Of a DNA stretch of 64,000 bases, positions 3,182-35,641 are shown in pieces. The notes below the pieces were generated by a model. It worked only from the letters and a program-made list of their open reading frames with translations. It had not been told where the DNA came from and searched no databases. Position numbers and translations under genes: made by a program. Numbering within the stretch: the first letter of the stretch is position 1; each line of letters opens with the position of its first letter. Source of the DNA: a virus; IMG/VR virus record IMGVR_UViG_3300025660_000003, positions 77,697-141,696 of that record; one strand, 5' to 3'.

Positions 3182-6100
3182 ATCCCGGCACCCTGACGAC
3201 AGGGCACGGCAAGGCGGCTCCTGACGAGATCGCCAAGCGCCCAGAGCTGACCGGGGTGGCTGGCCCTGTGCCGAACATCGGGGAGATCGAACAGACGATC
3301 CCCTCGCTGCCTGGCCAGCTCGCCGTCCAGTCGGTCATCGCCCACATCGACGACCCCAAGGAGGCCCACACCGCCTCTGCCATCGAGCACGACGGTCACC
3401 CGGACATCCTGTGGTCCAGCAACGTCGAGGGAGCCCTGGACGAGCTGATCGGCACGGTGCTGAAGCGTCCGCCCATGCTCGGCGAGTGGTCGCCGGACAC
3501 GACCTTCTCGGGCATCGCGGACTGGGGCTTCCTCAAGCTCCGTGATGGTGGTCTGGAGAACTACACGGGCTCTGGCCTCACGTTCACCGACGCCACGGTG
3601 CAGAACGACGCGAACGTCTACCCCTACTTGCAGACCTTGACGGGACCGCCACGGGACACTGAGTTCGCCGTCCCGATGACCGACCCCCGGACCGACCACC
3701 TGTTCAACTGGGGCATGGAGTCGCTCGGTGAGCCCGGCATGGGCTACGGCCGGACTCACATCGGGGCCTACACCCGGACCGGCCACATCGCCGTCCCGAA
3801 TGCGGCCATCTTCCGCACTGCACGGCTCATTGCCCGTCCGGCAGCGGAGGCTGCGGGCACGGGACGCAACGAGCGTGTTCCGGTGACCATCTCCGGCACC
3901 ATCTTCCCGGCAGACCGGGGGGTGCTGGCCCTCATCCACTTCGTCGTGCCTCGCGGCGAAGACCCATCGGACGTGCCGATCTCGTTCCTGGCACAGCCGC
4001 TCGTCACCGATGAGACCAATTTCATGGCCACTCAGGGACGGGTGGTCGCGGCCATCCTCCTGGGCAACGGCATCATCGGCGACAAGTGCCAGGGGGTAGA
4101 CCCCTGTGACGATGCCCACCTCTGCGACGGCGACCCCGGCGGCATCTTCGGCCCCGGTGTGGATGCGAGTGGCAACTACGACCCCTTCCAGTTCCCCGGC
4201 AGGGCGAGCGGCCAGTACGACCTGCTGGAGCTGCACCTGGGCGTCAACTCCGATGGCGACGCCCTCAAGACTCCGTGGGACGACCTCGACGGTGACACGG
4301 TGGCAGGAGCGCAGCGGACGCCCACGGCGGTCATCCCGGCTCCCGGCCAGGTCCGCCTCGGCACCGACCCCGACGCAGCTCCCCTGCTCGCGGTGGTCCC
4401 GAACGGCATCCCCATCCTCGGTGGCACGGTGGACTGTTTCACGGTCCCGCCCATCGCACAGGTGGGCAGCCTGACCCTCCCGATCCACGGGGATGCCATC
4501 GTCCGATCCTCGAACTTCTTCCGCTACCGCCTGCCGGTACTGAAGGACTACTCGCCTGCGACCGGGTTGAAGTGGACTCCCAGAGGCGAACTTCCGACAT
4601 CCACCTTCGAGACGAGCAGGTTCTTCGACGTGGCGGCCCCCTCGTCAGCCACCTACGAGGACGGCACGGTTGTAGGCGCGAGCCTGCGGTCGGCAGGGGT
4701 CTACGACGACTTCGACGAGGACTACTGGGTCTGGCAGATCGCCCGCTACCGGCAGACGTTCCTGATGCCATCCCTCGCGCTCAAAGACACACGCGAAGAG
4801 GCGGGCACCTACATGCTCGTCCACTTCAAGCGGGAGACCGACTTCGAGTCCTTCGTGCGTGACGCCAGCTTCCCGTGGGACACACCGGCCCCCTACGAGG
4901 TCTACGGAGCGTCCATCGTGGATCGCCCAGAGTCGGTGGACAACCTGGCGAACGACTGGCCCGCAGCGACGGTCCCGGTGGCCCCGGACGGTCCGGCTCC
5001 GGCCTACGGCTACGCCGCGAACCCGTGGCACAACATCCGCAACCGCATCTACCTGGACCCCCTGGGCGCGGCCGTCCCAGCCCCAACCTCATCGGCCCTC
5101 ACGTGGACATCCGCATCAGCTCCGGGTGGGGCGACGGAAGAGGTCATCTGGGTGTCGGGCATCGCCTACTTCACCCCCCGTGACATCGCGACCGGGGCGT
5201 CCAGCGTCACGCTCACCGCCTGCGACATCGACCTGCCAGCGGGCTTCTGGACTTCGTACCGCACGGACTACGCCGACCTGGAGACATGGCCGACCACCGG
5301 CCCGGCTGTCGTGGCTTCGCAGAACCCGGCGATGGTGGCACTCGCTCAGTGGGGCTACGGCCCCGCTCCCGGTGGCCTGCCGCTGAGTTCCCTGACCGTC
5401 CCGGTGGGCGTTTCCCCCGGCGGCTTCATCCCGGCGACGACGTACCAGGAGCAGTTCCGAATCGAAATCCCGTTCACGCACTTGGGCACCGCTGGCGCTG
5501 GCCCGTTCAGCGACATCAATGCACCGCTGGAGATCGACCCGGCATTCTTCACCCTCACCGGAACCATCGTCCTGCTGGGCGATGACACGGACCCGTCCTT
5601 CTCCAGCAACGCGGTCGCGCGGGTTCACTTCCGCCGCCCGCTCAACCACACAGCCGTCGCCTCTGTGAACCTGCCGTACACGGCGGTAGACGGTCACGGG
5701 CAGCTCTTGACCCACACGACCCCCGGCCCGGTGCTGCTGCACACGACCCGGTGGTCCGCTGCGACCCTGGTGGGCGACTACGGCAACTTCCTGGTAGGCG
5801 GCCTAGGTGCGGTGGGGTTCAACACGGCCGCCAAGGACTACACAGAGAGGTTCCTGGACGAGGGCCACCGCTACGTCGCCCTTGCTCCAGGGGGCCTCAT
5901 CGGTCACGGCCCCTACACCGCAGCCACCCTCGTAGCTCTCGACGGCCCCGGCATGGGCGGCTGGGCCGGTGGCCCGGTGGAGACCCCGGTGCGGATCTCG
6001 CTGGCAGCAGCAGTAGATCAGTGGGATGCCTCATCGTGGCTGCTGCAAGGACACAACCTCCTCGACCTGTCCGGTCCGACCCCGAGCCACGACGCTCTCC

Positions 6101-6870
6101 AGGTGGCCGGGCTGCCTGACCGGAACCCGCAGATCAAGGACGTGAACACCGTCCCGTTCCCCTCGGCAGGGGTGCTCATCTACCCCCGGACCGACTACTT
6201 CGGGGACGGCTACTTCCCGGACAACACCTTCATCACGGCCAACCAGTTCGACTACAGCGCGGCGGCAGGGCAGCGCAGCTACATCCGCTGCTTCGATGCG
6301 GCCTTCTCCAACCACGCGACCCCTGTGGCCGTGGCAGGGAAGTCGGATCTGGTCATCCGCCTCGATGGCATCACCCTTGCCGACATCACCTACGCGGCTC
6401 CTGGCCCCGGTGGTCTGGCCGTCAACCGCCCCGCCGTGGCCATCAAGGTGCCCGGCCTGACGACGTGGATGGACGCAGGGCGACAGGATGGTGCTGGCCC
6501 GAGCAAACAGGACAACCTGCTGGACGGTGCTGGTTGCCTGGTGTTCGGGAGCGAGACCTACACGTTCACCGACCCGGTGACGGGCTACAAGGGCTGCTAC
6601 CTCAAGATCAACGTCGGCCCGGTGGCAGGCTTGTTCATCAACCCGGCCCTGTGGTCGAGCTACACCGTGGGTTCGCCTCTGGGCGAGGCTCCGGTGCTCG
6701 TCAAGGTGTCGATGGATGCCGGGGCGCTGTCCTACAACTTGGAGCACCGGGCCACTGGCGTCGGTACCTTCGAGGCCGGTGTGCGGCCCGGCGGCGAATC
6801 CGACCAGGTACGAGGTCTGTTCACCATGCGGCTGGTCCACCCCACCGACACCCTGATCGCGTCCGACTGA
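3166..6870 (+). CDS. Large virion structural protein (1234 aa)
   Basis: Long GC3-rich ORF in the structural operon. HIDDPKEAHTASAI...NVEGALDEL motif resembles tail/fibre proteins. Confidence 0.6.
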   Translation: MPRIVNPGTLTTGHGKAAPDEIAKRPELTGVAGPVPNIGEIEQTIPSLPGQLAVQSVIAHIDDPKEAHTASAIEHDGHPDILWSSNVEGALDELIGTVLKRPPMLGEWSPDTTFSGIADWGFLKLRDGGLENYTGSGLTFTDATVQNDANVYPYLQTLTGPPRDTEFAVPMTDPRTDHLFNWGMESLGEPGMGYGRTHIGAYTRTGHIAVPNAAIFRTARLIARPAAEAAGTGRNERVPVTISGTIFPADRGVLALIHFVVPRGEDPSDVPISFLAQPLVTDETNFMATQGRVVAAILLGNGIIGDKCQGVDPCDDAHLCDGDPGGIFGPGVDASGNYDPFQFPGRASGQYDLLELHLGVNSDGDALKTPWDDLDGDTVAGAQRTPTAVIPAPGQVRLGTDPDAAPLLAVVPNGIPILGGTVDCFTVPPIAQVGSLTLPIHGDAIVRSSNFFRYRLPVLKDYSPATGLKWTPRGELPTSTFETSRFFDVAAPSSATYEDGTVVGASLRSAGVYDDFDEDYWVWQIARYRQTFLMPSLALKDTREEAGTYMLVHFKRETDFESFVRDASFPWDTPAPYEVYGASIVDRPESVDNLANDWPAATVPVAPDGPAPAYGYAANPWHNIRNRIYLDPLGAAVPAPTSSALTWTSASAPGGATEEVIWVSGIAYFTPRDIATGASSVTLTACDIDLPAGFWTSYRTDYADLETWPTTGPAVVASQNPAMVALAQWGYGPAPGGLPLSSLTVPVGVSPGGFIPATTYQEQFRIEIPFTHLGTAGAGPFSDINAPLEIDPAFFTLTGTIVLLGDDTDPSFSSNAVARVHFRRPLNHTAVASVNLPYTAVDGHGQLLTHTTPGPVLLHTTRWSAATLVGDYGNFLVGGLGAVGFNTAAKDYTERFLDEGHRYVALAPGGLIGHGPYTAATLVALDGPGMGGWAGGPVETPVRISLAAAVDQWDASSWLLQGHNLLDLSGPTPSHDALQVAGLPDRNPQIKDVNTVPFPSAGVLIYPRTDYFGDGYFPDNTFITANQFDYSAAAGQRSYIRCFDAAFSNHATPVAVAGKSDLVIRLDGITLADITYAAPGPGGLAVNRPAVAIKVPGLTTWMDAGRQDGAGPSKQDNLLDGAGCLVFGSETYTFTDPVTGYKGCYLKINVGPVAGLFINPALWSSYTVGSPLGEAPVLVKVSMDAGALSYNLEHRATGVGTFEAGVRPGGESDQVRGLFTMRLVHPTDTLIASD

Positions 6871-6872
6871 TG

Positions 6873-6903
6873 CGGTGGGGAGCCTATAGCCACGCAGAGG
6901 CAG
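6873..6903 (+). promoter_or_regulatory. Class-L (putative late) promoter motif CGGT-N6-CCTAT-N11-GGCAG
   Basis: Same spacing at 25135, 54621, 55481 and 59940, each between or at the ends of genes. Confidence 0.6.
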
Positions 6904-6918
6904 ACGGAGTGAAGTCTG

Positions 6919-9900
6919 ATGGCTGATTACCCACTGACGAAGCTGGACAAGGCGCTCGCACGTCGAGCAGCCACGTCATCGTCGAGGACTGCCTGGCAAG
7001 AGCTGATGGAGCGGTACGACACCGTGCCGTCATCCAAGTCGATTCAGGCTCCTGATGCCATCACGGGCTTCAGCGGCTCGTGGGCGGCCAGCTACGACCT
7101 GGGCGGGGCGCTGCGGGACATGGCGATGGGCGAGAGCCCCGCGCAGATCCAGCGACGCACGAACTTGCTGGGCCAGCCCGGCATGGCCGAGATCAACTTC
7201 CGCCCCTACGACCACGGCACCAACCGGCACGGCAAGTACGGCCCCTCCCTCCTGGGCCACCCCATCTCCTTCCAGGTGGTCGGCCCGACCGCCAAGACTC
7301 GCGGCCTGGTCCACCAGTGGTGGATCTCCGAGGCGGGTGGCATCGACACGTTGAACCTCGACGTGAGTGCAGACATCAACTCGAACGGGGGCTCCCCCAG
7401 CACCCTTCCGGCGGGTGCGGACACCATCAATGAGATCTACGGCACCGGGAAGATCCCGGATGAGGGGCTCTACCTCGTCGTCTCGATGACGGGTGCTGAG
7501 GGCGTCGTCACCGACAACGCCGATGGCTTCGGTGGTACGGACGGCGGACTCGGTGATGGGTTCATCGGTACGAACCCAGGCGTACCCGGCGGGATGGCCG
7601 CTCGTCTGGCGGTCGTCCCCCGCACGGAGTCGGCGAAGTACGAGATCTTCCGCGTCACGGCAATGACGGCGACGACCCTGGTGCTCGACAACGCCAAGCG
7701 GCTGTCCACCTACTTCGACTACAACATCGGAGCGAACGCCCCGGTCATCCGGGCCATCACCCTCATCCGGCCCGCAGCGACTCGGCTGGTGGCGGTCCCC
7801 GGCTCCGGCAGCAAGCAGGGCAGCGAGCAGACATTCGCCTTCGTGCCCCCGGCGACGGCCCTCAACGCGGACTGGCAGCCGGTCTACTCAGAGATCACTG
7901 TCGCGGGCCTCGTTGACCCGTGGACCAGCGGCAAGAGCATGACCGCGAACCCCGCGTGGGGCTTTGCGGCAGATGCCAAGGACTACGACCAGGCGGTCGC
8001 ACTCCCGATCCCGGCCCCCGTCAACCGAGGCTCTGGACGGCTCCAGGGCATCAATGGGGAGACGCCACAGCAGCTCCCGCTCGGCCGATTCCGCCTCATC
8101 CTGGATGCGGCGAGCTACTTCGGCAGCACGCTCGATCTCGGCAAGATCATCCGCATCAACGACATCCGGCGGGTGCTGGGCGGCAACTGGGAGACCTTCG
8201 ACTCCGCTCCGGCGACTCATCGAGGCCACCCCCTCCTGGATCGGATGCTTGGGTACTTCGAGATCTACAACACAGGCAACGGCGATCAGGGCGTCGGGGC
8301 GAACAACTTCTACGACCTGAAGTTCGTCACACAGGTTGACCCCGACACGGGCGTCCCCTTCCTTGGTGGTGCCTCGACCTTCGTGATGGCGACGGGCAGC
8401 GGGGCCGGGGAAGAGGTCCGGTTCCAGTGGACGGTGCATGAGCCCATTTCGACTCTGTGGACTGGCACCTACCTGCACCCGACGCGGCTCGACTCGGCCC
8501 GGCTGAAGAACCTCATCGACCCCCGGTGGGTCAAGCCGACCTTGAAGGGCCGGGAACTCGACGACATGGCCGGTCACACGGCGTTGCCGGACCGGGCCAT
8601 CTTCGACACGAGTTCGAGCAACGACGGTGCTGCGGGCAGCAACGCGAATCCGGGCAACCTGATGGACCTCGGTTTCCGGGTGGTCCTGTTCCCCGGCAAG
8701 CTCAGCGATGCTCCCGGCAACGACGTGATCCCGGACTTCGACAACCCCATCGACGCGAACGAGGTCATCCTCGACCCGACGAAGCTGGATGAGAACCAGT
8801 TCATCGAGGTGGACTACTCCGCAGGGCTCGTCCACCTGTCCCACCCGCCTGTGGTGGGCAGCCAGCTCGTCCCGGTCGCAGGAATCCTGACGGCGGACAA
8901 CAACCCCCGTGGCGAGGCAGTGTTCTTCGCGGCCTGTGTCCCCTTCAGCCGCGAGCCCGGCCAGATGGGCGTGAACCCCCGCCTGACGGCGGGCCGGAGC
9001 CTTGACCGTGCGGGGAGCTTCTGCGGGCTGGACAGCCCGGAGCCCGTGGATGTCTACGGTGGCCGCATCTTCTGGCCGGGAGACACCGATCCCACACTCC
9101 CCAGTGGTCCCCAGGGCAAGATCCTGCTGAACGCGGAGCTGTCGCCCATCGACCTGCCCCTGACGGGCTTCGTGGACGTGCTGATCGGGGATCTCAACCC
9201 GGCGGGCGACCCCCTCTTCTCCAACAACGCAGAGGAACGGCTCTGCACCTTCGGCTACAGCACCGTCAACTACGCCGACGCGGGCCACGGTTTGCGGACG
9301 ACCCTGGAGGGGACGTTCGGCGGTGCCGACCCCACGGCGACCTATGCGGTCGTTCCGGGCATCACCCCGGTCACGGTGGTGCTCCGCAAGAACATCGTCA
9401 TCCCGAACACCCCGGACGGGCGTGCTGGGACCGACTACCAGTTCGACACGACCTACGGTCACGCCAAGCGGCCAGCGGCCCTGCGCTTCACGCATGGGGG
9501 CCTGACCCCTGAGCACGACGGCACGGTCAGCATCTCGACGAAGGACCCCCGCACGGACGCCCATGAGGCGCTGTTCAGCGAGCTGTTCTCGTCATGGTGC
9601 ATCAGCGGCGGCATCAACACGACGGGCTTGCCTATCGGCGGCGACACGCTGCACTTCAGCTCTGCGGTCGTGCTCATCCAGGGCATCCGTACCGTCATGC
9701 CCGAGCAGGATGTGACTCTCGCGGTGGCCCCGAACTCGCGGTACGTCTACATCGACGGCAGCACCCCGGCCTGCCCGGTCTGGGCCAGCACGGACTTCTT
9801 GCCCCTGCCCACCGACAACGACGTACTCATGGCGTCGTACACGCACGCAGGCGGGGGCATCCAGACGCTCATCGACCTTCGCGACCCGCTCGTGGACATC

Positions 9901-26539: not shown

Positions 26540-28156
26540 ATGGCAGACGATCGAGTAGCGCGAGTCGCGGCAAAGCTGAAGGCCATCCGATCGCGGGAGG
26601 ACCTGAAGCTCAAGCCGACGCCCCACCTCAAGACGACCTTCACGGACTTCTCCGGCAACGAGAAGGAGCTGAAGATCCGCTACTACCAGGTGCAGGGAAT
26701 CCTCCACCTGATCTTTATGAAGCGGTTCCTGCTGGGCGATGACACCGGCCTCGGCAAGACGCTGGAGAGCATCGCAGCCCTTTGCTACATCTGGGAGAAG
26801 GACCCGGGCCGCAAGGTCATCGTCCTGACCACGAAGTCGGCAACCCCACAGTGGGCCAAGGAGTTCGCGAAGTTCACCAAGGGCGTCCGGGTCATCATCG
26901 CCTCTGGCACTCGCAAGCACCGCGAAGCGGCCTACGCGACGTGGCGGAAGGGCTCGATGCCGACCGTCATGGTCATGGGCTACCGCTCTGCCGTGAACGA
27001 CATTCGCAAGCTCCAGAGGGACGAGGGCTACATCCTCATCTGCGACGAGGCGACGGCGTTCAAGAACCCGAAGACCCAGGTGCATCAGGCCATCCGGCAC
27101 ATGAGCGAGATGGCGGACCGGACGTGGGCTCTGACGGCCACCCTCATCAAGAATCACCTGATGGAAGGCCACGGCATCTACCAGGTCGTCGTCCCCGGCC
27201 TGTTCGGGACGGCCAACAACTTCATGTACTACTACTGCATCGTCGAGATGATGCAGATCGGCAGGGGTCGCAAGGTCCCCCGCGTCGTCGGCTACTACCC
27301 CGAGAAGGTGGCCGAGTTCCGCAAGCACATCGAGCCGTACTACTACGGACGCCCCAAGCACGAAGTCGCCAAGGAGCTGCCCACCCTGACCCGTGAGCTG
27401 TTCGAGGTCAGCCTCACACCGGCCCAGGAGAGCAAGTACAACGAGGCCCTGACCGGGTTCCTTGAAGTGGGGGAGAAGCGAGCAGAGGGGCCGGAGGAGA
27501 AGGAGGTCACCAAGCTCACGGCGATCTCCTACTGCCAGCAGATCGTCAACCACCCGTCGCTCATCGAGTGCCCCGGCGGCTCCGGCAAGCTGGAAGCCCT
27601 GCTGGAGATGCTGACAGAGGGGGACCTGGCGGGCGAGAAGGTCATCATCTTCAGCCGGTTCAAGAAGATGGTGAACCTGCTGATGCCCGCCCTGAAGGCC
27701 AAGAAGATCATCGCGGTCAGGGTCACCGGGGACGAGAACGAGAATCAGCGGCAGGCGGCACAGGACGCCTTCCAGAACCCGGAGGACGACACACGGGTCA
27801 TCTGCATCACGTCGGCAGGTGGGGAGGCCATCAACCTCCAGGCGGCGAAGGCCATCATCTTCTTCGACACCCCATGGTCGGCGGGCGAGTACCTCCAGAT
27901 CCTCGGTCGGATGATCCGCATCGGGTCAGCGCACGCGGCGGTCCTGGCCATCCACCTGGTCACCAAGCTCAAGACCGGCAAGCCCACCATCGACCAGCGG
28001 GTCATGGACGTGATCGGCAGCAAGATGAAGCTCATCGAGGCGGTCCTTGGGGAACGCCTCAAGGGTACTGAGAAGGTGAAGGGCAAGAAGATCGAGGTCC
28101 GCAGCGAGATCAACGACATCTTCGATGCCTTGCGGGAGGATGCGAAGCCCAAATGA
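26540..28156 (+). CDS. SNF2-family (SF2) helicase/ATPase
   Basis: GDDTGLGKT Walker A, ICDEA Walker B, LTAT, KVIIFS, AGGEAINLQ, QILGRMIRIG motifs. Confidence 0.9.
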   Translation: MADDRVARVAAKLKAIRSREDLKLKPTPHLKTTFTDFSGNEKELKIRYYQVQGILHLIFMKRFLLGDDTGLGKTLESIAALCYIWEKDPGRKVIVLTTKSATPQWAKEFAKFTKGVRVIIASGTRKHREAAYATWRKGSMPTVMVMGYRSAVNDIRKLQRDEGYILICDEATAFKNPKTQVHQAIRHMSEMADRTWALTATLIKNHLMEGHGIYQVVVPGLFGTANNFMYYYCIVEMMQIGRGRKVPRVVGYYPEKVAEFRKHIEPYYYGRPKHEVAKELPTLTRELFEVSLTPAQESKYNEALTGFLEVGEKRAEGPEEKEVTKLTAISYCQQIVNHPSLIECPGGSGKLEALLEMLTEGDLAGEKVIIFSRFKKMVNLLMPALKAKKIIAVRVTGDENENQRQAAQDAFQNPEDDTRVICITSAGGEAINLQAAKAIIFFDTPWSAGEYLQILGRMIRIGSAHAAVLAIHLVTKLKTGKPTIDQRVMDVIGSKMKLIEAVLGERLKGTEKVKGKKIEVRSEINDIFDALREDAKPK

Positions 28157-29388
28157 GCAACAAGAAGGACAACCGCCCGGACATCAACCAGGACCACCCC
28201 CTGCTTGACTTCCCCCAGGGCAACGGCGACCCCGATTGCCCCAACTGCAAGGGCCGGGGCGTCGTCCCGGTCATGGTGGACCTCGGCGGCGGGAAGATGT
28301 GGCCCGGCGGTGGCACGCAGAACTGCGACTGCATGTTCAAGCGGGACCTCATCGCCAACGTCAAGCGGGTCTGGAAGGTGCTGCTCAACGTCGAGTCGGC
28401 GGAGGAGTCCGAACTGCTCGGCATGACCAACCAGAACCTCTGGATCACGGCGTCGAACTACGACATCCGGCGGCACCTCCGCTACGTCGCCTTCCGCATG
28501 GGAACCCGGTGGGACGCACGGGTCATCGCTGATGCCACCCTGGTCACCGCATGGCTCTCCAGCGTCAAGGACGTGTACGACGCCGACGTGCTGCTCGAAC
28601 GCGACGGGTTCAACCGGGAGCGGCCATCGGAGCACTACTTCACCCTGGTCGATCTGGCCGTGCCCTTCGACCTGCTCATCATCCGTCTGGGCGTGAAGGC
28701 AGCGAAGAATCGCGAGATGCCGAACGTGCTGGCAGAGGCCGTCAACGAGCGGGAGCAGCAGGGCAAGCCGACGTGGATCGTGGACTCCCCCATCAAGCCG
28801 CTGGCTCCGGGGCACATTTGCTACAACGATGCCGTCGTGGAGATGCTCGATGGCTTTCGCCGGGTCATCCTCTCGGACGGGGTACACGTCCCCGCTGGCG
28901 TGAAGACAGCAGCACAGCAGTACAAGGCCCCCAGGACCGCCAGAGCGACCGCAGGGGCGGCTAGTGCGGCTCCTGCCTCGCCGTACACCCGCCGCAAGGC
29001 AGGGATGGCCCAGGCGGCTCCTACGACCGCTCCGGCAACCCCACCACCGGAGCCAGTGGGCAACATGCCGATGGACGACTACGAGGGGGACCCCTCAGAG
29101 GTCTCGCTGGCGGACGATGACGAGTTCAGCGTGGACTCCCTGCTATCAGACGCCCACACCCCGCACCTCACGGATGGCGGTGAGGGCTTGCTGCCAGAGG
29201 ATGAGGTCAACGTGGAGGAGCTGTTGTCGGACTTCCCGACCGCTGGTGAGCTGGGCGGCAACGCGAGGGAGCTGCCCTCGTTCCTGCGTGGTCCGCTGAC
29301 GAAGGAGGACCGACAGGCCAAGGAGAAGGCGGCGAAGCGGCAGAAGCGGCGGGACAAGAAGTTCGGCCCGAAGGGGGGTGGACGATGA
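28153..29388 (+). CDS. DnaC/IstB-like helicase loader, apparently degenerate ATPase, with N-terminal Zn finger and acidic tail
   Basis: CPNCKGRG...CDC; DLLII and 'NER...KPTWI' segments; no intact Walker A; directly upstream of the helicase. Confidence 0.5.
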   Translation: MSNKKDNRPDINQDHPLLDFPQGNGDPDCPNCKGRGVVPVMVDLGGGKMWPGGGTQNCDCMFKRDLIANVKRVWKVLLNVESAEESELLGMTNQNLWITASNYDIRRHLRYVAFRMGTRWDARVIADATLVTAWLSSVKDVYDADVLLERDGFNRERPSEHYFTLVDLAVPFDLLIIRLGVKAAKNREMPNVLAEAVNEREQQGKPTWIVDSPIKPLAPGHICYNDAVVEMLDGFRRVILSDGVHVPAGVKTAAQQYKAPRTARATAGAASAAPASPYTRRKAGMAQAAPTTAPATPPPEPVGNMPMDDYEGDPSEVSLADDDEFSVDSLLSDAHTPHLTDGGEGLLPEDEVNVEELLSDFPTAGELGGNARELPSFLRGPLTKEDRQAKEKAAKRQKRRDKKFGPKGGGR

Positions 29389-30941
29389 AGTCCCTACTGC
29401 GGTCCCTGTTCATCGGTGACGCTGGCGACAACGGGCAACTGCTTCTGAACAACTACCAGTTGTTCAACGGGTCGGGGCTTGGGTTCGACGTGCCCGAGTA
29501 CAACGCGATCTGGAAGTACATCCAGGAGTTCGTGCGGACGCACAACCACGTCCCGGCCATCCTGACCATCCGGTCGCACTTCGAGTACAGCAAAGAGGAC
29601 AGCGTCCTCGACCAGCTCAAGGCCCTGGAGGGGCTGAAGGCCCGAACGAAGGGTGACTTCCAGGGCGTCCTCGAAGACAGGGCGAACGACCGCCGCCAGC
29701 GGTTGTGGTCGGAGGCTCTCAAGGAGGCGTCGATCATCACCTCGACCGGCATGGAAGTGCAGGAGGGCCGGGAGAAGAAGCTGCTCATCGGGCCGGTGAT
29801 GTCGGCCCGGTACCTGATGGACAAGGCCCACGACGTAGTGGCTCCGACCATCGGTGGTCGGCTCTCCGGCGAGGTGACCAAGGACGGGGTGGCGGTCAGG
29901 GAGGAGTACGAGCGGGTGGAGTCTGACCCGCTGGCAGGCATCGGGCAGTTCTCGTTCCTGAAGCAGATGGACGATGCCCTGGGTGGGGCGAAGCGGCATG
30001 AGCTGTGGATTCACGCGGCCTTCACGGGCGGCATGAAGTCCACCCTGATGCTGAACTGGGCCTACAACCAGGCCGTCCTGTACGGCCACAACGCCCTGAT
30101 CTTCTCGCTGGAGATGCCGTACAGCCAGTGCCGTCGCATCCTCTACGCCATCCACTCGATTCACCCGAAGTTCCGTGAGATTCGGATGCGGTTGGGGCTC
30201 CAGCAGGACTTGGAGTCGGACGTGGGGCTGGCGTACACGGAGATCCGTGACGGCAAGCTGAGTGGCCCGGCCAAGCGGTTCTACTTCGACTTCGTGATCC
30301 CGGACTTCAACGGGACCGACGTGGTCAAGCACCCGTACATGGACTGCGACTACGGGAAGATCCACATCGAGGTAGCCGATCCCGACAAGGACGACTTCAC
30401 GATGCACGATCTCCGGTCGATGGCCGAGATCATCTACTCCAAGGAACCGTTCTCGATGATCTTCGTGGACCACTGCGGGCTGATGAGCCCCCGGCGGCAC
30501 CGCAACAGCACCACCGAGAACTTGAACGAGGTCATCCGGGACCTCAAGAAGCTGGCCCTGGGGTTCAACCGGGGCATGGGCATCGCCGTCGTGGGCCTCT
30601 TCCAGATCAGCCGCGAGGGGTACAAGAGCGCCCTCAAGGCCAAGGAGAAGACGGGCAAGGCGGGCTACAACCTGACCCACCTGTCCTACGCCAACGAGGC
30701 AGAGCGGTCTGCCGACGTGGTGACGACGACGTGGCTCGACGACGACCTGAAGAACCAGAGCAGGGTGCAGTTGAACTGCCTCAAGTCGCGCGACCAGGCT
30801 CCGTTCGACCCCTTCATCGCGCGGGTAGAGTGGCCCTGTCGTCGCCTGTTCTCCTGCTTCGAGGTGGCACGGACCCCGGAGGAGAACGCCAAGATGGGGG
30901 CCGAGATCGACAAGGCAGGCAAGGAGCTGGACGACGACTGA
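29385..30941 (+). CDS. dnaB: DnaB-like (SF4) replicative helicase
   Basis: AFTGGMKST Walker A, FSLEM, IFVDH, QISR, ERSADVV, LKSRD. Confidence 0.85.
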   Translation: MKSLLRSLFIGDAGDNGQLLLNNYQLFNGSGLGFDVPEYNAIWKYIQEFVRTHNHVPAILTIRSHFEYSKEDSVLDQLKALEGLKARTKGDFQGVLEDRANDRRQRLWSEALKEASIITSTGMEVQEGREKKLLIGPVMSARYLMDKAHDVVAPTIGGRLSGEVTKDGVAVREEYERVESDPLAGIGQFSFLKQMDDALGGAKRHELWIHAAFTGGMKSTLMLNWAYNQAVLYGHNALIFSLEMPYSQCRRILYAIHSIHPKFREIRMRLGLQQDLESDVGLAYTEIRDGKLSGPAKRFYFDFVIPDFNGTDVVKHPYMDCDYGKIHIEVADPDKDDFTMHDLRSMAEIIYSKEPFSMIFVDHCGLMSPRRHRNSTTENLNEVIRDLKKLALGFNRGMGIAVVGLFQISREGYKSALKAKEKTGKAGYNLTHLSYANEAERSADVVTTTWLDDDLKNQSRVQLNCLKSRDQAPFDPFIARVEWPCRRLFSCFEVARTPEENAKMGAEIDKAGKELDDD

Positions 30942-32956
30942 TGCCGGCCCTGACCACCATCCACGTCGCCCGTAAGCCCCTCGACGGGACGGTGGCAGAG
31001 AACGCCATCAAGCACGGCACTGGCTCCCTCAACATCAAGGAGACCCGGGTCGGCTACCAAAACGAAGCGGACATGCGCCTGGAGACACGGGGGGTCCATG
31101 TCGGTGGTGCCTATGAACATCCAGAAGGCACTGCGTTCAAGAAGGAAGTCAACCGCGTAGCACCCCCTGATACGGGGGGCCGCTGGCCCGCCAACGTCAT
31201 CCTCCAGCACCTGGCCGGCTGTGAGCGGGTGGGTGAGCGGGAAGTGACCTCCGGCAACGGTGCCGACACCATGACCCCCACCACGCACGAGGGGCCGGCG
31301 AAGTTCGGATACAGCCCGGAGCGGCACCAGTTCAACTACGGCAAGGAGACGGTCGATCACTGGGACTGTGCAGACGGCTGCCCTGTGGCCGATGTCGATG
31401 AGCAGAGCGGGGTGTCGAAGGGGACTGGGGGCACTATCTCCGGGCAGACGGCTTTCGGACAGAACCTGGGCTGGAACCCCCACCAGAACCGACCCACACC
31501 TATCGTCCGGCAGAACGACGAAGGCGGGGCCTCTCGATTCTTCAAGCAGGTCACCACAGATGAGGATCTCGACATGCCGGCTTTGAGCACCGTCCACATG
31601 GCCAGGAAGCCCCTCGAAGGGACGGTGGCCGCCAACGCCCTGAAGTACGGCACCGGCTCCCTCAACATCGGGGCGACCCGCATCGGCAGCTCCGGGGGGA
31701 CCAAGCGAGTCGGACAGGCCACCACACCGACACCTCAGGGGTGGGCCAACATGGGCGGCCACGACATCGCATCGCTGCCTGATGGCCGCTGGCCGGCGAA
31801 CGTCATCCTCGAACACCTGCCTGACTGCCAGTGCGACGGGACACGGAAGGTGAAGGGCGTCAAGGGTGGGTTCACCCCCGGGAGCACGGGGGCCTTCGGC
31901 CACAACTCGACCTACGGCCTCGCAGAGGGGGTCGAGGGCGACCCTGCTGAGGGCACCGGGTACACCGACGCAGAGGGCAACGAGGAGATTGACCACTGGG
32001 TGTGTGCCCCTGGCTGCCCCATCGCTGACATCGACGAGCAGAGCGGGGTCACGGTCGCCAAGAAGTCCATGCGTGGAGTGGGCTACTCCGACAGCGATGT
32101 CTACGGTCAAGGTGACGGGGAGTTCGACACCGTTCGGGGGTTCGACGACCAGGGGGGAGCCTCCCGCTACTTCAAGCAGTCGCAGTACGACCTGATCGAG
32201 TACCTCCGGGCGATGATCTCGACCCCGACCCACCGGGCCTTCGTCATCGACATGGAGACCTACCCCCTCTGGCCCGGGGACCAGCTTCTCGCGAAGCCGG
32301 GCTCGGTGGTCGGCCTGGTGGTCCGGGGAGCCATCGAGCAGGAGCACGTTGACGAGTTCATGCGCCTCCTGCCTCCCGGCGGCCACGTCCTTCTCATCGC
32401 TCCCGACTCGCAGCCCACCGGACACACGGGGGCGATTCTTCTGGAAGATGGCGGCTTCGAGATCCGGGACGCCATCCTTGTCGTTCGAGGCCCGGGACGA
32501 GCGCACTACGTCGCGAAGGCCGGGCGAAGGGAGCGGGAGGCCGGCTGCGGGCACCTCAAGGGCAAGGCCGGGCACGAGGCCGTGGAGCGCAAGGAAGGCT
32601 CCGCTGGGGTGGACAACCCCAGGGCAGGAGCTGGGCGGACGGCAGAGCACGTCAAGAACTTCCATCCGACCGTCAAGCCCATCGCGGTGATGGAACGACT
32701 GCTCGCTGATGTCCCCGAGGGTGTGACGGTGCTCGACCCCTTCCTCGGCTCCGGGACGACGGGGATCGCCTGCTCGAAGACCGGACACAGCTTCATCGGC
32801 ATCGAGCGGGAGGCGGAGTACCTGGAGATCGCGGACGCCAGGGTGAGGCACTGGGACCGAGCCCACGTCGGCTGGCAGGGGGCGGACATCGAGTCGGACC
32901 ACAAGGTGCCGGAGGTCGAAGTGGAGCCGATGGACCTGATGGACCTCTTCGGATGA
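30941..32956 (+). CDS. DNA amino-methyltransferase C-terminal half (SAM-binding) with duplicated ~210-aa module; lacks DPPY
   Basis: ARKPLxGTVAxNA..GTGSLNI..GRWPANVIL..GASRxFKQ twice, then HPTVKP and VLDPFLGSGTTG. Confidence 0.85.
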   Translation: MPALTTIHVARKPLDGTVAENAIKHGTGSLNIKETRVGYQNEADMRLETRGVHVGGAYEHPEGTAFKKEVNRVAPPDTGGRWPANVILQHLAGCERVGEREVTSGNGADTMTPTTHEGPAKFGYSPERHQFNYGKETVDHWDCADGCPVADVDEQSGVSKGTGGTISGQTAFGQNLGWNPHQNRPTPIVRQNDEGGASRFFKQVTTDEDLDMPALSTVHMARKPLEGTVAANALKYGTGSLNIGATRIGSSGGTKRVGQATTPTPQGWANMGGHDIASLPDGRWPANVILEHLPDCQCDGTRKVKGVKGGFTPGSTGAFGHNSTYGLAEGVEGDPAEGTGYTDAEGNEEIDHWVCAPGCPIADIDEQSGVTVAKKSMRGVGYSDSDVYGQGDGEFDTVRGFDDQGGASRYFKQSQYDLIEYLRAMISTPTHRAFVIDMETYPLWPGDQLLAKPGSVVGLVVRGAIEQEHVDEFMRLLPPGGHVLLIAPDSQPTGHTGAILLEDGGFEIRDAILVVRGPGRAHYVAKAGRREREAGCGHLKGKAGHEAVERKEGSAGVDNPRAGAGRTAEHVKNFHPTVKPIAVMERLLADVPEGVTVLDPFLGSGTTGIACSKTGHSFIGIEREAEYLEIADARVRHWDRAHVGWQGADIESDHKVPEVEVEPMDLMDLFG

Positions 32957-32962
32957 CAAGGG

Positions 32963-33745
32963 TCAGCGACCCAGGGCCATTCTCACTGATTTCTCGGGGT
33001 CGGCTTTGAAGTCTATTTCCCACACTTCCACTACAGGGACACCTTGAGCAGCGAGGAACGCGAGCTTTCTTTTGTACCTGGAGGCGGTGCGCTTCTGCGA
33101 AGAGTATTTGGGGCCGTTGGGGTAAGCGCGGGGGTCGGCGTGCCAGAAGGTCCCGTTGAACTCCAGGGCGGTGTTGATGATGGGCAGGTAGTAGTCCACC
33201 ACAGCCGCGAATCGTCCGTGATCCCCCCTCATCCGATGCTGTGCCTGGTACGTGACGCCGAGCTGGTCGAGAATGGGGGCAACCTGCTGTTCCAGCTTGG
33301 ACACGCGAGGGATGCGGCCCTCGCTGATAGCTCTGGCGACGGACAAGGAGATTTTGGCCTTGGTCTCCTCTGTGTGGGCATAGCGGCCCTCGGCTTTCCT
33401 CCGGGTGTTTTGCCTGATCATCCGCAAACCCTGAGCTTGTCGGGTGGCCTCTGGGACGACATAGGGCTTGGTGACGACTCGCTGCACCAGCCCAGTCGAT
33501 CGGGCCTTGTAGGCGCAATCGGGGGAACACAGCAAGACATCGGTCTTCGACCTGGCCACCCGGGATGGCGGGCGGGTCACAGGAACTCCACAGACTCCAC
33601 ACGGTTCAGTAGATGAGGTGGACTTGTTGGAGGCCCGTAGCGAGTAAGAGCAGGTACGAGAGCAAGTCGTCTGCCGGCCATGTTTGAGGCGGGTAGGGTC
33701 GGCTTCGTAGGGCGTCCCGCAGACGGGACATCGACGTTTAACCAA
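32963..33745 (-). mobile_element. Free-standing Vsr/DUF559-like homing endonuclease with Cys repeats and NUMOD3-like motif (start uncertain)
   Basis: CPVCG..CSRTC, HTEETKAKIS, SKLEQ..VDYYL..LEFNGTFWH..VWE; inverted orientation; atypical codon usage. Confidence 0.75.
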
Positions 33746-33755
33746 GGAGCACCCC

Positions 33756-33884
33756 GTGGGTGAAGGAGAACACAGCCGTAGGGCGCAGGTGATCCGGCTC
33801 CGACTCGGAGATTGCATCAGGGTGCTTCGTCACCTCGATGCAGAGTCGGTTGATGCCGTGGTCACTGATCCGCCCTACGGTTGA
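33756..33884 (+). CDS. Methyltransferase extreme N-terminal fragment ending in the catalytic DPPYG (42 aa)
   Basis: AAGGAG RBS + GTG; reads ...LRLGDCIRVLRHLDAESVDAVVTDPPYG-TGA; not in the ORF track. Confidence 0.8.
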   Translation: MGEGEHSRRAQVIRLRLGDCIRVLRHLDAESVDAVVTDPPYG

Positions 33885-35641
33885 CCATACCTGGACTGGA
33901 GTTCATGGGGAAGGACTGGGACGCCCCCTGGAAGCTCGGGGCCGGGATGATGAAGCCTGGCATCGGCGACCGGGACATCCCCTGGCCTGCCTACGGAGCC
34001 CAGAAGTTCGGGGGCTCGAACCCCACCTGTCAGACCTGCGGCGGTCGGGCGAGGGGCAGCAACAGGTGTTCCTGCGAGGAGCCTGACTGGCACGTCAGCG
34101 GGAAGCCCCTGTCTGACGACGTGAACGACTCTGCCAGCCCGGTAGTTCAGCGACAGCGGTTCCAGGCCTGGTGCGTCCTCTGGCTGGTGGAGGTCTACCG
34201 GGTGCTCAAGCCTGGTGGGGTCATCAAGGTCTTCGGAGCGACCCGGATGTTCCACCGGATGGCGGCGGCGATGGAGGAGGCGGGGTTCTTCCTCCCGCCT
34301 GAGCACAGCCTGGAAGCCTGGATGTATGGGTGCCTGTCTGAGGACACTGAGGTATTGACCGAGGACGGGTGGGCTCCCTACCATAGAGCCACGGTTGGAA
34401 CGCTGGTGATGGGGTTCGACCCTGTGACGGAGCGGTTCATCCAGCAGCCTGTGGAGGAGACCTTTGAGTACCCCTACGACCGAGAGGCTTTCCGAATCCA
34501 CGGAGACGGAACTGACCAGATCGTTTCCGTCAAGCACCGCTGTCTCGTCGGGCGAGACGGTAAGTGGGAGGTCGTCGTCTCGGGCGACCTGGCGGAAACT
34601 GAGACAATGCCCTGCCTGCAAAGCGGAGTTCATTCCGAAGGCGTCGGGTCAGAAGGCATGTGGGCGCTCCTGCTCGAACCGGCTGCGGGTCTACAAGAAG
34701 AAGCCCTTGTCCGAGCGGAAGGGCCGGATGGTGGCCTGCTCGGTCTGCGGGACCGAGAAGTGGTACGCGGAGGCGTGGCTGCGGAAGGGCATCAAGCAGC
34801 CGACGTGTTCCAGGAGGTGCAACGGAGTGCATCGGGGGCAGGACTGGGCGAAGCACGGGCACAAGGGAGCGGAAGCCAGAACACCAGAGAGCTACCAGCG
34901 TGCCGCCCAGAAGATGACCGGCTCGAAGAACCCGGCATGGAAGGGCGGGGTGACGTACGTGTCCCACAGAGGGAACTACAAGCGGACCAAATGCGTCCGT
35001 TGTCCGCCGGAGTATCGGTCGATGGCTCGGTCGAACGGGTACGTCGCAGAGCACAGGCTCCTGGTGGCGAGGGAACTGGGCCGAATGTTGACGAGGACCG
35101 AAGTGGTTCATCATGTGAACCACGACTCTCAGGACAATCGGCTGGTGAACCTGATGCTGTTCGCCTCGAATCGGGATCACAAGCTGTTCGAGCACCACGG
35201 AGCACCAGCCCCGATCTGGTGCGGGTCAGCGCACGAGTCGAGCGTATCCACTACACCGGCACCGTCTGGTGCGTGAGGGTGCCTACCGGGGCTTTCGTGG
35301 TCCGCCGCAAGGGCATGGCATTCGTCACTGGCAACAGCGGCTTTCCGAAGTACCTCAACACCAGCAAGGCCATCGACAAGGCGGCTCGTGGGGTGCCACA
35401 AGGAGGACCCGACGAGACCAGCCCGAACCACGGCAAGTACAAGACACAGGCCACTGAGGGTTCCCGTGGGTCGGCTGATGTGGGTCAGGGGTACGGTGCC
35501 GGTCCAGGGGCCTTCATGCGTGAGGCCGGGACTCTGGTGGACCTCCCGTTGACGACGCCCGATGCAGAAAAGTTCGACGGATGGGCCACGGCTCTGAAAC
35601 CAGGGTGGGAGCCATTTCTGGTAGGAGTGAAAGCAGAATGA
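33881..35641 (+). CDS. Methyltransferase N-terminal/central portion containing an intein
   Basis: GLEFMGKDWD, YRVLKPGG, FGATRMFHRM, WMYG|SGFPK, GWATALKPGWEP; in the -1 frame relative to the DPPYG fragment. Confidence 0.85.
   Translation: MTIPGLEFMGKDWDAPWKLGAGMMKPGIGDRDIPWPAYGAQKFGGSNPTCQTCGGRARGSNRCSCEEPDWHVSGKPLSDDVNDSASPVVQRQRFQAWCVLWLVEVYRVLKPGGVIKVFGATRMFHRMAAAMEEAGFFLPPEHSLEAWMYGCLSEDTEVLTEDGWAPYHRATVGTLVMGFDPVTERFIQQPVEETFEYPYDREAFRIHGDGTDQIVSVKHRCLVGRDGKWEVVVSGDLAETETMPCLQSGVHSEGVGSEGMWALLLEPAAGLQEEALVRAEGPDGGLLGLRDREVVRGGVAAEGHQAADVFQEVQRSASGAGLGEARAQGSGSQNTRELPACRPEDDRLEEPGMEGRGDVRVPQRELQADQMRPLSAGVSVDGSVERVRRRAQAPGGEGTGPNVDEDRSGSSCEPRLSGQSAGEPDAVRLESGSQAVRAPRSTSPDLVRVSARVERIHYTGTVWCVRVPTGAFVVRRKGMAFVTGNSGFPKYLNTSKAIDKAARGVPQGGPDETSPNHGKYKTQATEGSRGSADVGQGYGAGPGAFMREAGTLVDLPLTTPDAEKFDGWATALKPGWEPFLVGVKAE
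34331..35335 (+). mobile_element. Intein (335 aa) at WMYG|SGFPK
   Basis: Begins CLSEDTEVLTEDGW, block B VSVKHRCLV, ends YTGTVWCVRVPTGAFVVRRKGMAFVTGN; +1 residue Ser. Confidence 0.9.
34464..35276 (+). CDS. HNH homing endonuclease overprinted in the +1 frame inside the intein
   Basis: CPACK..CGRSC, CSVCG..CSRRC, GSKNPAWKGG, YVAEHRL..VVHHVNHDSQDNRLVNL; GGAGG 6 nt upstream of the TTG. Confidence 0.85.
   Translation: MSTPTTERLSESTETELTRSFPSSTAVSSGETVSGRSSSRATWRKLRQCPACKAEFIPKASGQKACGRSCSNRLRVYKKKPLSERKGRMVACSVCGTEKWYAEAWLRKGIKQPTCSRRCNGVHRGQDWAKHGHKGAEARTPESYQRAAQKMTGSKNPAWKGGVTYVSHRGNYKRTKCVRCPPEYRSMARSNGYVAEHRLLVARELGRMLTRTEVVHHVNHDSQDNRLVNLMLFASNRDHKLFEHHGAPAPIWCGSAHESSVSTTPAPSGA

Follow-up and report, generated by a model that had tools for sequence, protein, structure and literature searches.

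A probable two-subunit DNA methyltransferase of a phage, with a candidate translational bypass site directly after its catalytic motif

Introduction

How can a DNA methyltransferase be produced when its conserved motifs are spread over three open reading frames (ORFs)? This question is raised by a locus in the right-hand 64 kb of the 141.7-kb IMG/VR virus record IMGVR_UViG_3300025660_000003, and this 64-kb stretch is called the window throughout. CheckV estimates the record to be 27% complete, which indicates a huge phage, and the GC content of the window is about 65%. The original prediction, based on the sequence alone, saw in the locus a single beta-class enzyme, cut into three pieces in permuted order, and proposed that the three products assemble into a multi-subunit enzyme. 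The three ORFs and the motifs listed for them are present as described. The same locus also holds two target-recognition-type modules, an intein, an HNH ORF, a 14-nucleotide (nt) insertion and an endonuclease gene on the minus strand. Of these, the intein, the hidden HNH gene, the endonuclease cassette and the duplication of the recognition module were no part of the original prediction.

Our analysis indicates that the locus probably encodes a two-subunit beta-class DNA amino-methyltransferase, which would methylate DNA with a catalytic site assembled from both chains. The break directly after the catalytic DPPYG motif, a stop codon and short spacer, is of a different kind. Such stop-plus-spacer gaps are the most novel element of the locus, and they are examined below together with the selfish elements around them.

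The following labels are used. T denotes a target-recognition-type module, N the catalytic half of the enzyme, N' a dead paralogue of N, and C the half that binds S-adenosylmethionine (SAM). Module boundaries were taken from hidden Markov models (HMMs; Tfam, Nprime, Cmod and Nmod) built in this analysis from relatives. L-numbers refer to relative loci or contigs and P-numbers to relative proteins. All positions without an L-number are those of the window, and the features are collected in Table 1.

Results

Division of the enzyme between two polypeptides

The beta-class motifs IV (DPPYG) and I (DPFLGSGTT) are both present and in the order IV...I, but they lie on two polypeptides. The upstream product, T1-T2-N'-C, matches PF01555 over residues 569-631 with 62.5 bits (cut-off 26.7). 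The downstream ORF 33881-35641, belonging to N, reaches 22.2 bits and remains below this cut-off; relatives of N carry the PF01555 tag in the database. A search with residues 400-671 of the upstream protein returned 7,948 proteins at E ≤ 0.001 among 8,000 scored candidates, and most of the 120 matches listed cover more than 90% of the N'-C stretch at 41-82% identity. Nearly all T-N'-C members inspected begin at the strand hTIhVARKPL. The motifs LxPGG, the G of PTGH, EDxGFEIRD, HYVxKA, NxHPTxKP and DPFxGSG are invariant in an alignment of 31 members and invariant or at least 90% conserved in one of 53, and DPPY is found in none of the aligned members. Stand-alone N proteins form 910 clusters of 170-300 amino acids, running from GDC..DPPYG to TALKPxWEPxxxGxKP followed by a stop. 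Every examined contig bearing T-N'-C also bears at least one N gene, which in L099 (P0224) lies more than 8 kb from T-N'-C on the same 53.8-kb contig.

The degenerate segment LLPPGG..EDGGFEIRD, noticed in the original prediction as a second copy within the SAM-binding piece, is real and a conserved feature of a large protein family. It belongs to N', which in the window has RGAI instead of DPPY and keeps LLPPGG, PTGH and EDGGFEIRD. In the alignments the columns of these three motifs are invariant across the family and the DPPY position is degenerate in all members, with RGAI, RGEP, RSPA, GGTP and YGQV as variants.

Both genes are kept in L005 (64% identity), L193, L194 and the contig of P0006. 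Their order varies: T-N'-C precedes N in these four and in L187, as in the window's own clade, and N comes first in L109, in L110 and in part of L097. The permutation therefore carries no meaning, and a fixed permuted order was discarded as a trait of the family. In L107 (9461-11152) the modules occur as a natural N-T-N'-C fusion. Canonical single-chain N-T-C enzymes (Oogway gp58, L113) have one copy of the strand EPIVVARKPL; in the split forms one copy ends N and another begins T. On some huge-phage contigs the modules are also multiplied. L097 (6591-14129) has five N genes, five free-standing T genes and a single T-N'-C gene, L108 (9539-18698) has six N and six T genes around a single SAM-binding gene, and in these multi-gene sets N stop codons overlap T start codons by 4 nt. 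T modules outnumber N genes by one in several loci (two to one in the window, L109 and L110, three to two in L194, six to five in L097). This would fit one T per N-like unit when N' is counted; L005 and L017 break the rule.

Selection on the pieces was estimated from the ratio of nonsynonymous to synonymous substitution rates (dN/dS) against L193. The values were 0.23 for N' (82% amino acid identity, dS 0.47), 0.14 for C (82%, dS 0.88), 0.30 for N from its start to DPPYG (64%, dS 1.21), 0.35 for the remaining N-extein (56%, dS 1.35) and 0.54 for the C-extein of N (53%, dS 0.96), so that the methylase pieces are under purifying selection. The flanking DnaB and SNF2 genes gave 0.013-0.043 at 99-100% identity (dS 0.065-0.076). 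The methylase locus is far more diverged than its flanks and can be recognised by this as a recombination mosaic.

On this comparative evidence we regard the split between N and T-N'-C as old, widespread and selected. Homologous loci retain the split, dN/dS against L193 is below 1, the order of C before N is the part that varies, and it is this divided state under constraint, not a contiguous gene next to decaying pieces, that relatives display.

Structure models of the divided enzyme

The proposal that catalytic and SAM-binding motifs are supplied by separate chains was further examined by structure prediction on proteins of two relatives. The complex model used the cognate pair of L097, consisting of the N encoded at 7357-8001, whose stop overlaps the T-N'-C start, and P0049, with alignments of 64 and 53 rows. 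The interface score ipSAE was 0.89, 0.87 and 0.88 in three runs and 0.00 in all three controls; the 0.88 mark is reached by 58 of 80 solved complexes and by 2 of 110 mismatched pairs. The partners had a predicted local distance difference test (pLDDT) score of at least 72, and at least 68% of the contacts were common to the runs. In the model, YIGI of C (motif II) is contacted by residues 4-6 of N, which belong to the strand preceding GDC (motif III). Both DPFNGSG of C (residues 364-372, motif I) and the N strand with DPP (residues 21-30) take part in the interface. The hairpin GYGTALKPAWEP of N meets T at its first strand and at its LNID and GRWPAN loops, and His107 of N is placed against His264 in the PTGH helix of N'. 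N and C are thus predicted to interdigitate into a single canonical domain, with N' beside N.

The natural fusion of L107 gave a consistent picture. Its AlphaFold2 (AF2) model (pLDDT 82, predicted TM score 0.82) aligns to CcrM with Z 22.8 over 225 residues, to M.BceJIV with Z 22.5 over 209 of 248 residues at a root-mean-square deviation (rmsd) of 2.1, and to M.RsrI with Z 22.4. The aligned ranges extend from residue 1 to about 540 and use N and C together. The chains of METTL3-METTL14 are also among the structural matches, with Z of about 11-12. In both predictions N and C would rebuild the canonical beta-class fold.

T1-T2-N'-C might instead be a complete methylase by itself, with N' catalytic through a motif other than DPPY and N an unrelated leftover or regulator. 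N' shows strong conservation (PTGH, EDxGFEIRD) and is the direct neighbour of C in the chain, and AF2 models the family member P0049 by itself with confidence (pLDDT 80). In that monomer model, however, the fold is not completed by N'. The part that aligns to beta-class enzymes is C alone, which matches the C-terminal part of RsrI, CcrM and BceJIV (model residues 291-424, Z 5-6, 75-88 residues in VIA-align; 40-44% identity to M.BceJIV over the aligned part), and Foldseek finds its beta-class matches at an rmsd of about 20 Å, which we read as N' and C not building one canonical domain. It is N, not N', that completes the fold in the fusion model, the DPPY position of N' is variable, and every examined T-N'-C gene is accompanied by an N gene. 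We consider a self-sufficient T1-T2-N'-C very improbable.

In the two-subunit enzyme that we favour, N (33756-35641) would supply motifs III-VIII including the catalytic DPPY, and T1-T2-N'-C two recognition modules, a dead paralogue of N, and the motifs X, I and II that bind SAM. The strands of N would flank the two strands of C and so form one canonical catalytic domain in trans. The first T module would dock onto the C-terminal hairpin of N, and N' would pack on N as the second protomer of a dimer does. Some points count against this picture. The halves belong to a fold that has been solved as a single chain, so that the high scores may reflect likeness and not binding; the models were built from proteins of L097 and L107 and are predictions for relatives of the window's proteins; and the roles given to N' and to the second T module are guesswork.

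In summary, the claim that catalytic and SAM-binding motifs reside on separate polypeptides is supported by the split in every relative examined, the fusion in L107, dN/dS values of 0.14-0.54, the complex model of the L097 pair (0.88 against 0.00 in controls) and the Z-scores of 22-23 of the fusion model.

The break after DPPYG

The catalytic DPPYG codons (33867-33881) are followed directly by TGA. The ORF 33881-35641 lies in the -1 frame relative to the 5' segment of N and contributes four extra codons before G-LEFMGKDWD. Compared with uninterrupted relatives, the junction of the two ORFs is a 14-nt insertion, reading GGT, TGA CCATACCT, GGA. Removal of 14 nt (TTGACCATACCTGG) leaves GAT CCG CCC TAC GGA CTG GAG TTC ATG and restores DPPYG-LEFM(GKDWD). 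The break is missing from the closest relatives, L193 and L005. In L017, at about 43% protein identity, the equivalent junction reads GGT TAG CATACCAC GGA.

Pattern scans of IMG/VR and of JGI metagenomes, in which a landing GGN and LEF were required and TGG was permitted after the first Gly, gave 39 DPPYG sites (the window counted) with a Gly codon, a stop, a spacer of 2-18 nt and GGN. Gaps of 5 nt were most frequent (17 sites, net shift +2), followed by 11 nt (8 sites, +2), 9 nt (7 sites, 0), 7 nt (3 sites, +1), 8 nt (2 sites, +2), and 13 nt (+1) and 21 nt (0) with one site each. The codon after the first Gly was TGA, TAG or TAA in 39 of 39 sites and TGG in 0 of 39. Downstream, the ORFs remain open for 160-620 codons or to the contig end in 38 of 39, the exception being L189, a deleted remnant of 29 codons. 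Two looser scans without the required landing codon gave the same picture: in 8 of 8 DPPYG sites the uninterrupted sequence is taken up again with GGN and (L/I/Y)(E/S)F. Among these eight are L260, whose 12-nt gap has two in-frame stops, and L272 with a gap of 10 nt. The take-off and landing pair is always Gly to Gly, and at many sites the codons are identical (GGC to GGC in most 5-nt gaps). The break is therefore recurrent and not a private frameshift. As a split point it is absent from the closest relatives and present in about 40 other contigs.

As a general mechanism, -1 or +1 frameshifting and stop readthrough were discarded, since net shifts of 0, +1 and +2 would be required, one site has two in-frame stops and there is no slippery sequence. 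A phage tRNA or suppressor was likewise set aside, as the 141.7 kb of the record contain no tRNA or tmRNA gene according to ARAGORN. One mechanism able to accommodate all three net shifts (0, +1 and +2) and still yield the canonical protein is translational bypass. In the window, a ribosome carrying peptidyl-tRNA-Gly would leave GGT (33879) with the stop codon in the A site, cross the 11-nt gap and re-pair at GGA (33893), and its product would be the normal DPPYG-LEFMGK chain. Real translational bypass is the best reading of the break, and one that the pattern of these sites leads us to favour by a modest measure.

Other observations weigh against bypass. GGT and GGA of the window are only synonymous, so that re-pairing needs a wobble mismatch. 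Folding of 8 sites revealed no significant or shared stem-loop or other RNA structure at the take-off (Z -1.3 to +1.9), and no phage tRNA was found. Synthetic stop-hops are inefficient (about 1%), and the yield of N could accordingly be very low. A stem-loop is dispensable for short hops in synthetic constructs (PMC5009743). According to the same 2016 recoding review, natural bypass beyond T4 gene 60 and its homologues comprised yeast mitochondrial inserts and a handful of unconfirmed candidates, and synthetic stop-hops were known with no natural in-frame case (PMC5009743).

The break could also mean what the original prediction took it to mean, an enzyme of three polypeptides. The 42-residue DPPYG peptide would then be released, translation of the rest of N would begin separately, at the TTG of 33881 or anew at the FMGK Met, and the chains would assemble. 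The TTG of the window does overlap the stop (TTGA), CTGGAG just before the FMGK ATG is a possible weak Shine-Dalgarno sequence, conservation of both flanks of the gap is predicted here as well, and the family clearly tolerates division into pieces (N, T and T-N'-C). On the other hand, a start codon common to the roughly 40 sites is absent; the 9-, 12- and 21-nt classes are in frame and offer nothing before the FMGK Met. Re-initiation at this Met would lose the Phe that precedes it and is invariant in the N family. All eight loosely found sites keep an in-frame Gly and (L/I/Y)(E/S)F at the point of resumption, and a division here would lie within the loop of the catalytic motif IV. We therefore hold a three-subunit enzyme to be unlikely; the break after DPPYG is most likely decoded through and part of the homing-endonuclease cassette described below.

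A less probable alternative still is that N is dead in this phage, as collateral damage from the cassette, with the methylase dispensable and the intact ORF temporary. The closest relatives L193 and L005 lack the gap, phage methylases are often dispensable, as argued in PMC11855218, and degraded N genes occur beside such sites in L189 and L134. What makes this improbable is the state of the other genes: apart from L189, the downstream ORFs are open in 38 of 39 despite 40-60% protein divergence, a true stop always stands directly after the Gly, and a Gly codon always restarts the sequence. In the window itself 582 codons are intact, both intein ends included, and dN/dS is 0.30-0.54 on either side of the gap. 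Concerning the two apparently degraded variants, the interrupted N of L189 (555-853) is reduced to DPPYG..LEFMGKKWD fused straight to GWGTALKP, and L134 (3564-5534) has the same endonuclease beside a methylase without the DPPY segment.

A proposed homing-endonuclease cassette that includes the gap

Between the two methylase genes, on the minus strand, lies a free-standing homing-endonuclease-like gene. Its protein has zinc ribbons, a NUMOD3-like motif and a C-terminal EVWExDF domain of nuclease type (Vsr-like); the conserved part of the gene starts near an in-frame TTG at 33745, and comparison of the protein with solved structures by sequence gave no match. Homologues stand at the same place and in the same orientation beside interrupted N genes in 9 other loci, with 46-66% identity over the full length in most of them. 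The 5' end of the endonuclease gene lies 60-135 nt upstream of the site on the opposite strand (247 nt in one partial match). It adjoins 10 of 15 loci of the 9/11/13-nt class, where the spacers share a TACCA-like core, and 0 of 22 loci with gaps of 5, 7 or 8 nt.

The base composition at third codon positions (GC3) is 0.53 in the endonuclease gene and 0.60 in the 42 codons upstream of the gap. It is 0.87 in N directly after the gap, 0.84 in T1-T2-N'-C and 0.92 in DnaB. At 32953 there is an ATGA remnant of a former coupled N start, and the same ATGA is the real N start in L193, which has no endonuclease. In L238, L228 and L201 the 5' fragments are 77-86% identical, as against 41-53% for the downstream parts. 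From the GC3 contrast, the ATGA remnant and the likeness of the 5' fragments, the cassette can be delimited as the endonuclease gene, a replacement 5' segment of N and the gap. The 5' segment of N was probably brought in together with the endonuclease.

We propose that N has been invaded twice by selfish elements, once by this cassette and once by the intein described below. The cassette would comprise the minus-strand gene, the replacement for the first 42 codons of N, and the stop with 8 nt right after DPPYG. Its nuclease would target the conserved DPPYG-LEFMGK DNA, and insertion of the gap would destroy the target and confer immunity. The T4 MobA insert offers a precedent, as it brings a homologous region of its own, extends to the landing codon or slightly beyond, and has a gap that shields the carrier from its own nuclease (bioRxiv 10.1101/2022.08.31.505936). 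The 5/7/8-nt class without an adjacent endonuclease speaks against immunity as a general explanation; these short-gap sites could be immune alleles or cassettes that lost the gene.

The 435-kb relative L017 has an extra methyltransferase of 374 amino acids (4736-5857) between T-N'-C and the interrupted N, at the place taken by the endonuclease in the window. Its N-terminus bears a motif of the PF01555 C-terminal type, and class-I methyltransferase matches follow further along.

The intein and its out-of-frame HNH gene

The second invasion of N is an intein that splits the conserved host motif YG|SGFPK, which is predicted to become contiguous only after protein splicing; many N proteins are without it. 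Cys at 34331, an SVKH block B, and VTGN followed by Ser at 35336 form its motifs. A Hint-N profile (A6, the first 100 residues of 12 inteins) matches the AceL NrdHF intein 6zgq in the PDB with E 4.5e-9, and the PolII, RecA and DnaX inteins with 0.002-0.012; PI-MtuI is among the matches. L005 and L017 have LAGLIDADG-type inteins at exactly the same site. Less in keeping with an intein are the lack of any match to the Pfam Hint models and the penultimate residue, which is Gly and not His. The intein is 78-89% alike between the window and L193, compared with 53-64% for the exteins, as a mobile element would show.

The middle of the intein has no conserved protein sequence in the host frame. The +1 frame there encodes an HNH homing endonuclease whose TTG start follows GGAGGAG. 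Comparison of the window with L193 gives a dN/dS of 0.27 in the HNH frame and 1.49 in the host frame over the same bases, so that the host frame is held open and its sequence is not conserved. In nine loci (the window, L193, L075, L107, L148, L167, L116, L094 and the L005 insertion, which is in a T module and not an intein) the host frame is free of stops through the HNH gene, and the third frame has 5-18 stops. When the codons of each locus were shuffled 2,000 times, no more than 0.3% of the shuffles left the host frame open. A group I intron as the carrier of the HNH ORF was rejected, as there is too little non-ORF sequence and the host frame is open far beyond chance; in the published case of phage ShiLan no intron was found either (PMC11855218). 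The intein would have to splice out of N, with the HNH endonuclease translated separately from the +1 frame.

A comparable insertion occurs in L005 (6001-8166), a 64% relative, where the single T module is interrupted right after GRWPANVILQH by about 290 codons. The insertion has no intein motifs, an open host frame and an HNH ORF (6257-7030) in the +1 frame; P0007 suggests that in another relative the downstream part is called as a separate gene. The L005 insertion is of the ShiLan type, at a new site.

Coordinates and surroundings of the locus

Table 1. Features of the methyltransferase locus in the window.
Feature	Position	Strand	Basis
T1-T2-N'-C gene, non-catalytic subunit, 671 amino acids	30941..32956	+	ORF, module HMMs, family alignment A1
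T1, first target-recognition-type module (ARKPL..GTGSLNI..GRWPAN..CxxGCP..GGASRFF)	30950..31555	+	Tfam HMM, 190.8 bits
T2, second, divergent target-recognition-type module	31583..32185	+	Tfam HMM, 207.4 bits
N', motif X/I remnant (LIEYLRAMISTP..VID), then catalytic-half paralogue	32186..32557	+	Nprime HMM, 161.7 bits
C, SAM-binding half (HYVAKA, NFHPTVKP, DPFLGSGTT, IGIE)	32561..32917	+	Cmod HMM, 200.1 bits; PF01555
Free-standing homing-endonuclease-like gene between the methylase genes	32963..33817	-	phrog_3339, phrog_559
N gene, 5' segment, 42 codons, GTG start, motif III GDC, motif IV DPPYG	33756..33881	+	Nmod HMM positions 3-32
Coding gap, TGA + CCATACCT, 11 nt	33882..33892	+	between take-off GGT (33879-33881) and landing GGA (33893-33895)
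N-extein of N (G-LEFMGKDWD..LKPGG..EAWMYG)	33893..34330	+	Nmod HMM positions 32-142
Intein, 335 amino acids, CLSEDTEVLTEDGW to VWCVRVPTGAF..VTGN, +1 Ser	34331..35335	+	residues 151-485 of ORF 33881-35641
HNH homing endonuclease ORF, 270 codons, +1 frame of intein	34464..35276	+	PF13392 (4.6e-7), several HNH PHROGs
C-extein of N (SGFPKYLN..GWATALKPGWEPFLVGVKAE, then stop)	35336..35641	+	Nmod HMM positions 143-223

The genes just upstream of the methylase locus code for an SNF2 helicase, a protein of unknown function and a DnaB-type helicase, an arrangement common to relatives. The ATG of T1-T2-N'-C overlaps the stop codon of the DnaB gene, and the 5' segment of N has a ribosome-binding site rated as good (AAGGAG at 33744-33749). 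T1 and T2 are both ARKPL..GRWPAN..GGASRFF (ASRFF) modules and 49% identical. Among deposited phages, megablast gave no match to the 5-kb methylase region.

The C-terminus of the T1-T2-N'-C protein, encoded at 32930-32953, is an acidic and hydrophobic tail, (S/D)LxDLFG(W/F), conserved in nearly all aligned members. We take it to resemble the C-terminal tails with which T4-type polymerase and gp33/gp55 bind the sliding clamp; if it binds the clamp, it could tether the methylase to the replisome.

Over 26540-35641 the window and L193 have SNF2 and DnaB genes that are 99-100% identical (dS about 0.07) next to a methylase region with dS 0.5-1.3 and a different content of T modules. Judged from this contrast, the methylase locus is a recombination hot spot between near-identical phages. 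A few kb further downstream, the opposite strand of the close relatives L193 (16049-16564) and L194 (17911-18426) encodes an additional small adenine methylase (PF10237).

Discussion

Taken as a whole, the locus may represent two things at once, a natural family of short-range bypass sites in phage methylase genes and a modular kit for multi-subunit methyltransferases. This joint proposal is made tentatively, and we give it somewhat less than an even chance. Its first half would comprise about 40 sites with gaps of 5-21 nt, in-frame stop-hops included, which would have arisen as target-site immunity to a homing endonuclease attacking DPPYG-LEFMGK, an independent reinvention of the T4 mobA/gene 60 cassette. 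In its second half, interchangeable catalytic halves and free recognition modules (up to six of each per phage) would share one SAM-binding subunit.

If the first half is true, there would be a second, larger and more varied set of bypass sites in bacterial viruses, with short gaps and all three frame relations, a natural series from which the minimal requirements of hopping could be read, and an evolutionary rationale for bypass in immunity to a neighbouring homing endonuclease. Gene callers would systematically break such genes. If the kit is real, one phage could have several methylation specificities, and an in-trans beta-class enzyme with a dead paralogue and free modules suggests how huge phages could diversify their methylation against host restriction; a two-chain methylase would also be a natural split-enzyme scaffold. 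In this locus one gene is shaped by selfish elements of three kinds: the cassette with its free-standing endonuclease, the intein, and the HNH gene hidden out of frame.

Compared with the single-chain beta-class enzymes of PF01555 (CcrM, M.BceJIV, M.RsrI and gp58 of Mycobacterium phage Oogway), the motifs are the same and, if N, T and C are read serially, so is their order. Here, however, a cut separates strand beta7 from the recognition module, with a copy of the strand on both pieces, the dead paralogue N' is inserted before motif X, and the recognition modules are duplicated or, in relatives, free-standing. M.AquI and M.EcoHK31I are naturally split C5-class DNA methyltransferases of two polypeptides, and like the enzyme proposed here they build one methyltransferase fold from two separately translated chains. 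They differ in enzyme class and in cut point, and are not known to have a dead paralogue domain, multiple catalytic or recognition modules or a link to homing elements. For M.SssI, fragment complementation is documented (PMC3404938). An active unit paired with a homologous dead unit is also seen in METTL3-METTL14 and in dimeric beta-class enzymes with one working protomer. This is an analogy only, since the dead unit here amounts to half a domain, joined to the active unit's SAM-binding half, and no common descent is implied.

The out-of-frame HNH arrangement is already published (PMC11855218, 2025), and the window is a further case. The ShiLan domain of actinophage methylases is likewise an insertion whose host frame is open and whose HNH ORF uses another frame, its host is also a phage DNA methylase, of the same broad family, and ShiLan gp65 bears an intein as well (PMC11855218). 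In the window, by contrast, the hidden HNH gene lies inside a bona fide intein, has a clear Shine-Dalgarno sequence and TTG start, and overlaps with its first 48 or so codons the coding sequence of the Hint domain. An out-of-frame endonuclease in a cyanobacterial dnaX intein is reported in a 2026 preprint (bioRxiv 10.64898/2026.09.14.751524).

The closest functional parallel to the cassette is T4 gene 60 with MobA. Both have a Gly take-off codon, a stop directly 3' of it, a Gly landing codon and resumption at the next codon (PMC5009743). In both, about 40-46 codons of the gene precede the gap, which interrupts a highly conserved part of the host gene; a homing endonuclease gene is found immediately upstream, and the insert supplies a 5' segment of the gene that is unlike the resident sequence (bioRxiv 10.1101/2022.08.31.505936). 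The T4 gap measures 50 nt, as against 5-21 nt here, where no take-off stem-loop was detected at the folded sites, the two Gly codons are often only synonymous, and bypass is deduced from the pattern of the sites. The host gene is a topoisomerase subunit in T4 and a methylase half here. The endonuclease of the window is unrelated to MobA (HNH); its matches to phrog_3339/559, its Vsr-like C-terminus, its place on the opposite strand and its methylase host do not fit descent from the T4 MobA element. By analogy, the cassette would work like the T4 element without being a member of it by descent.

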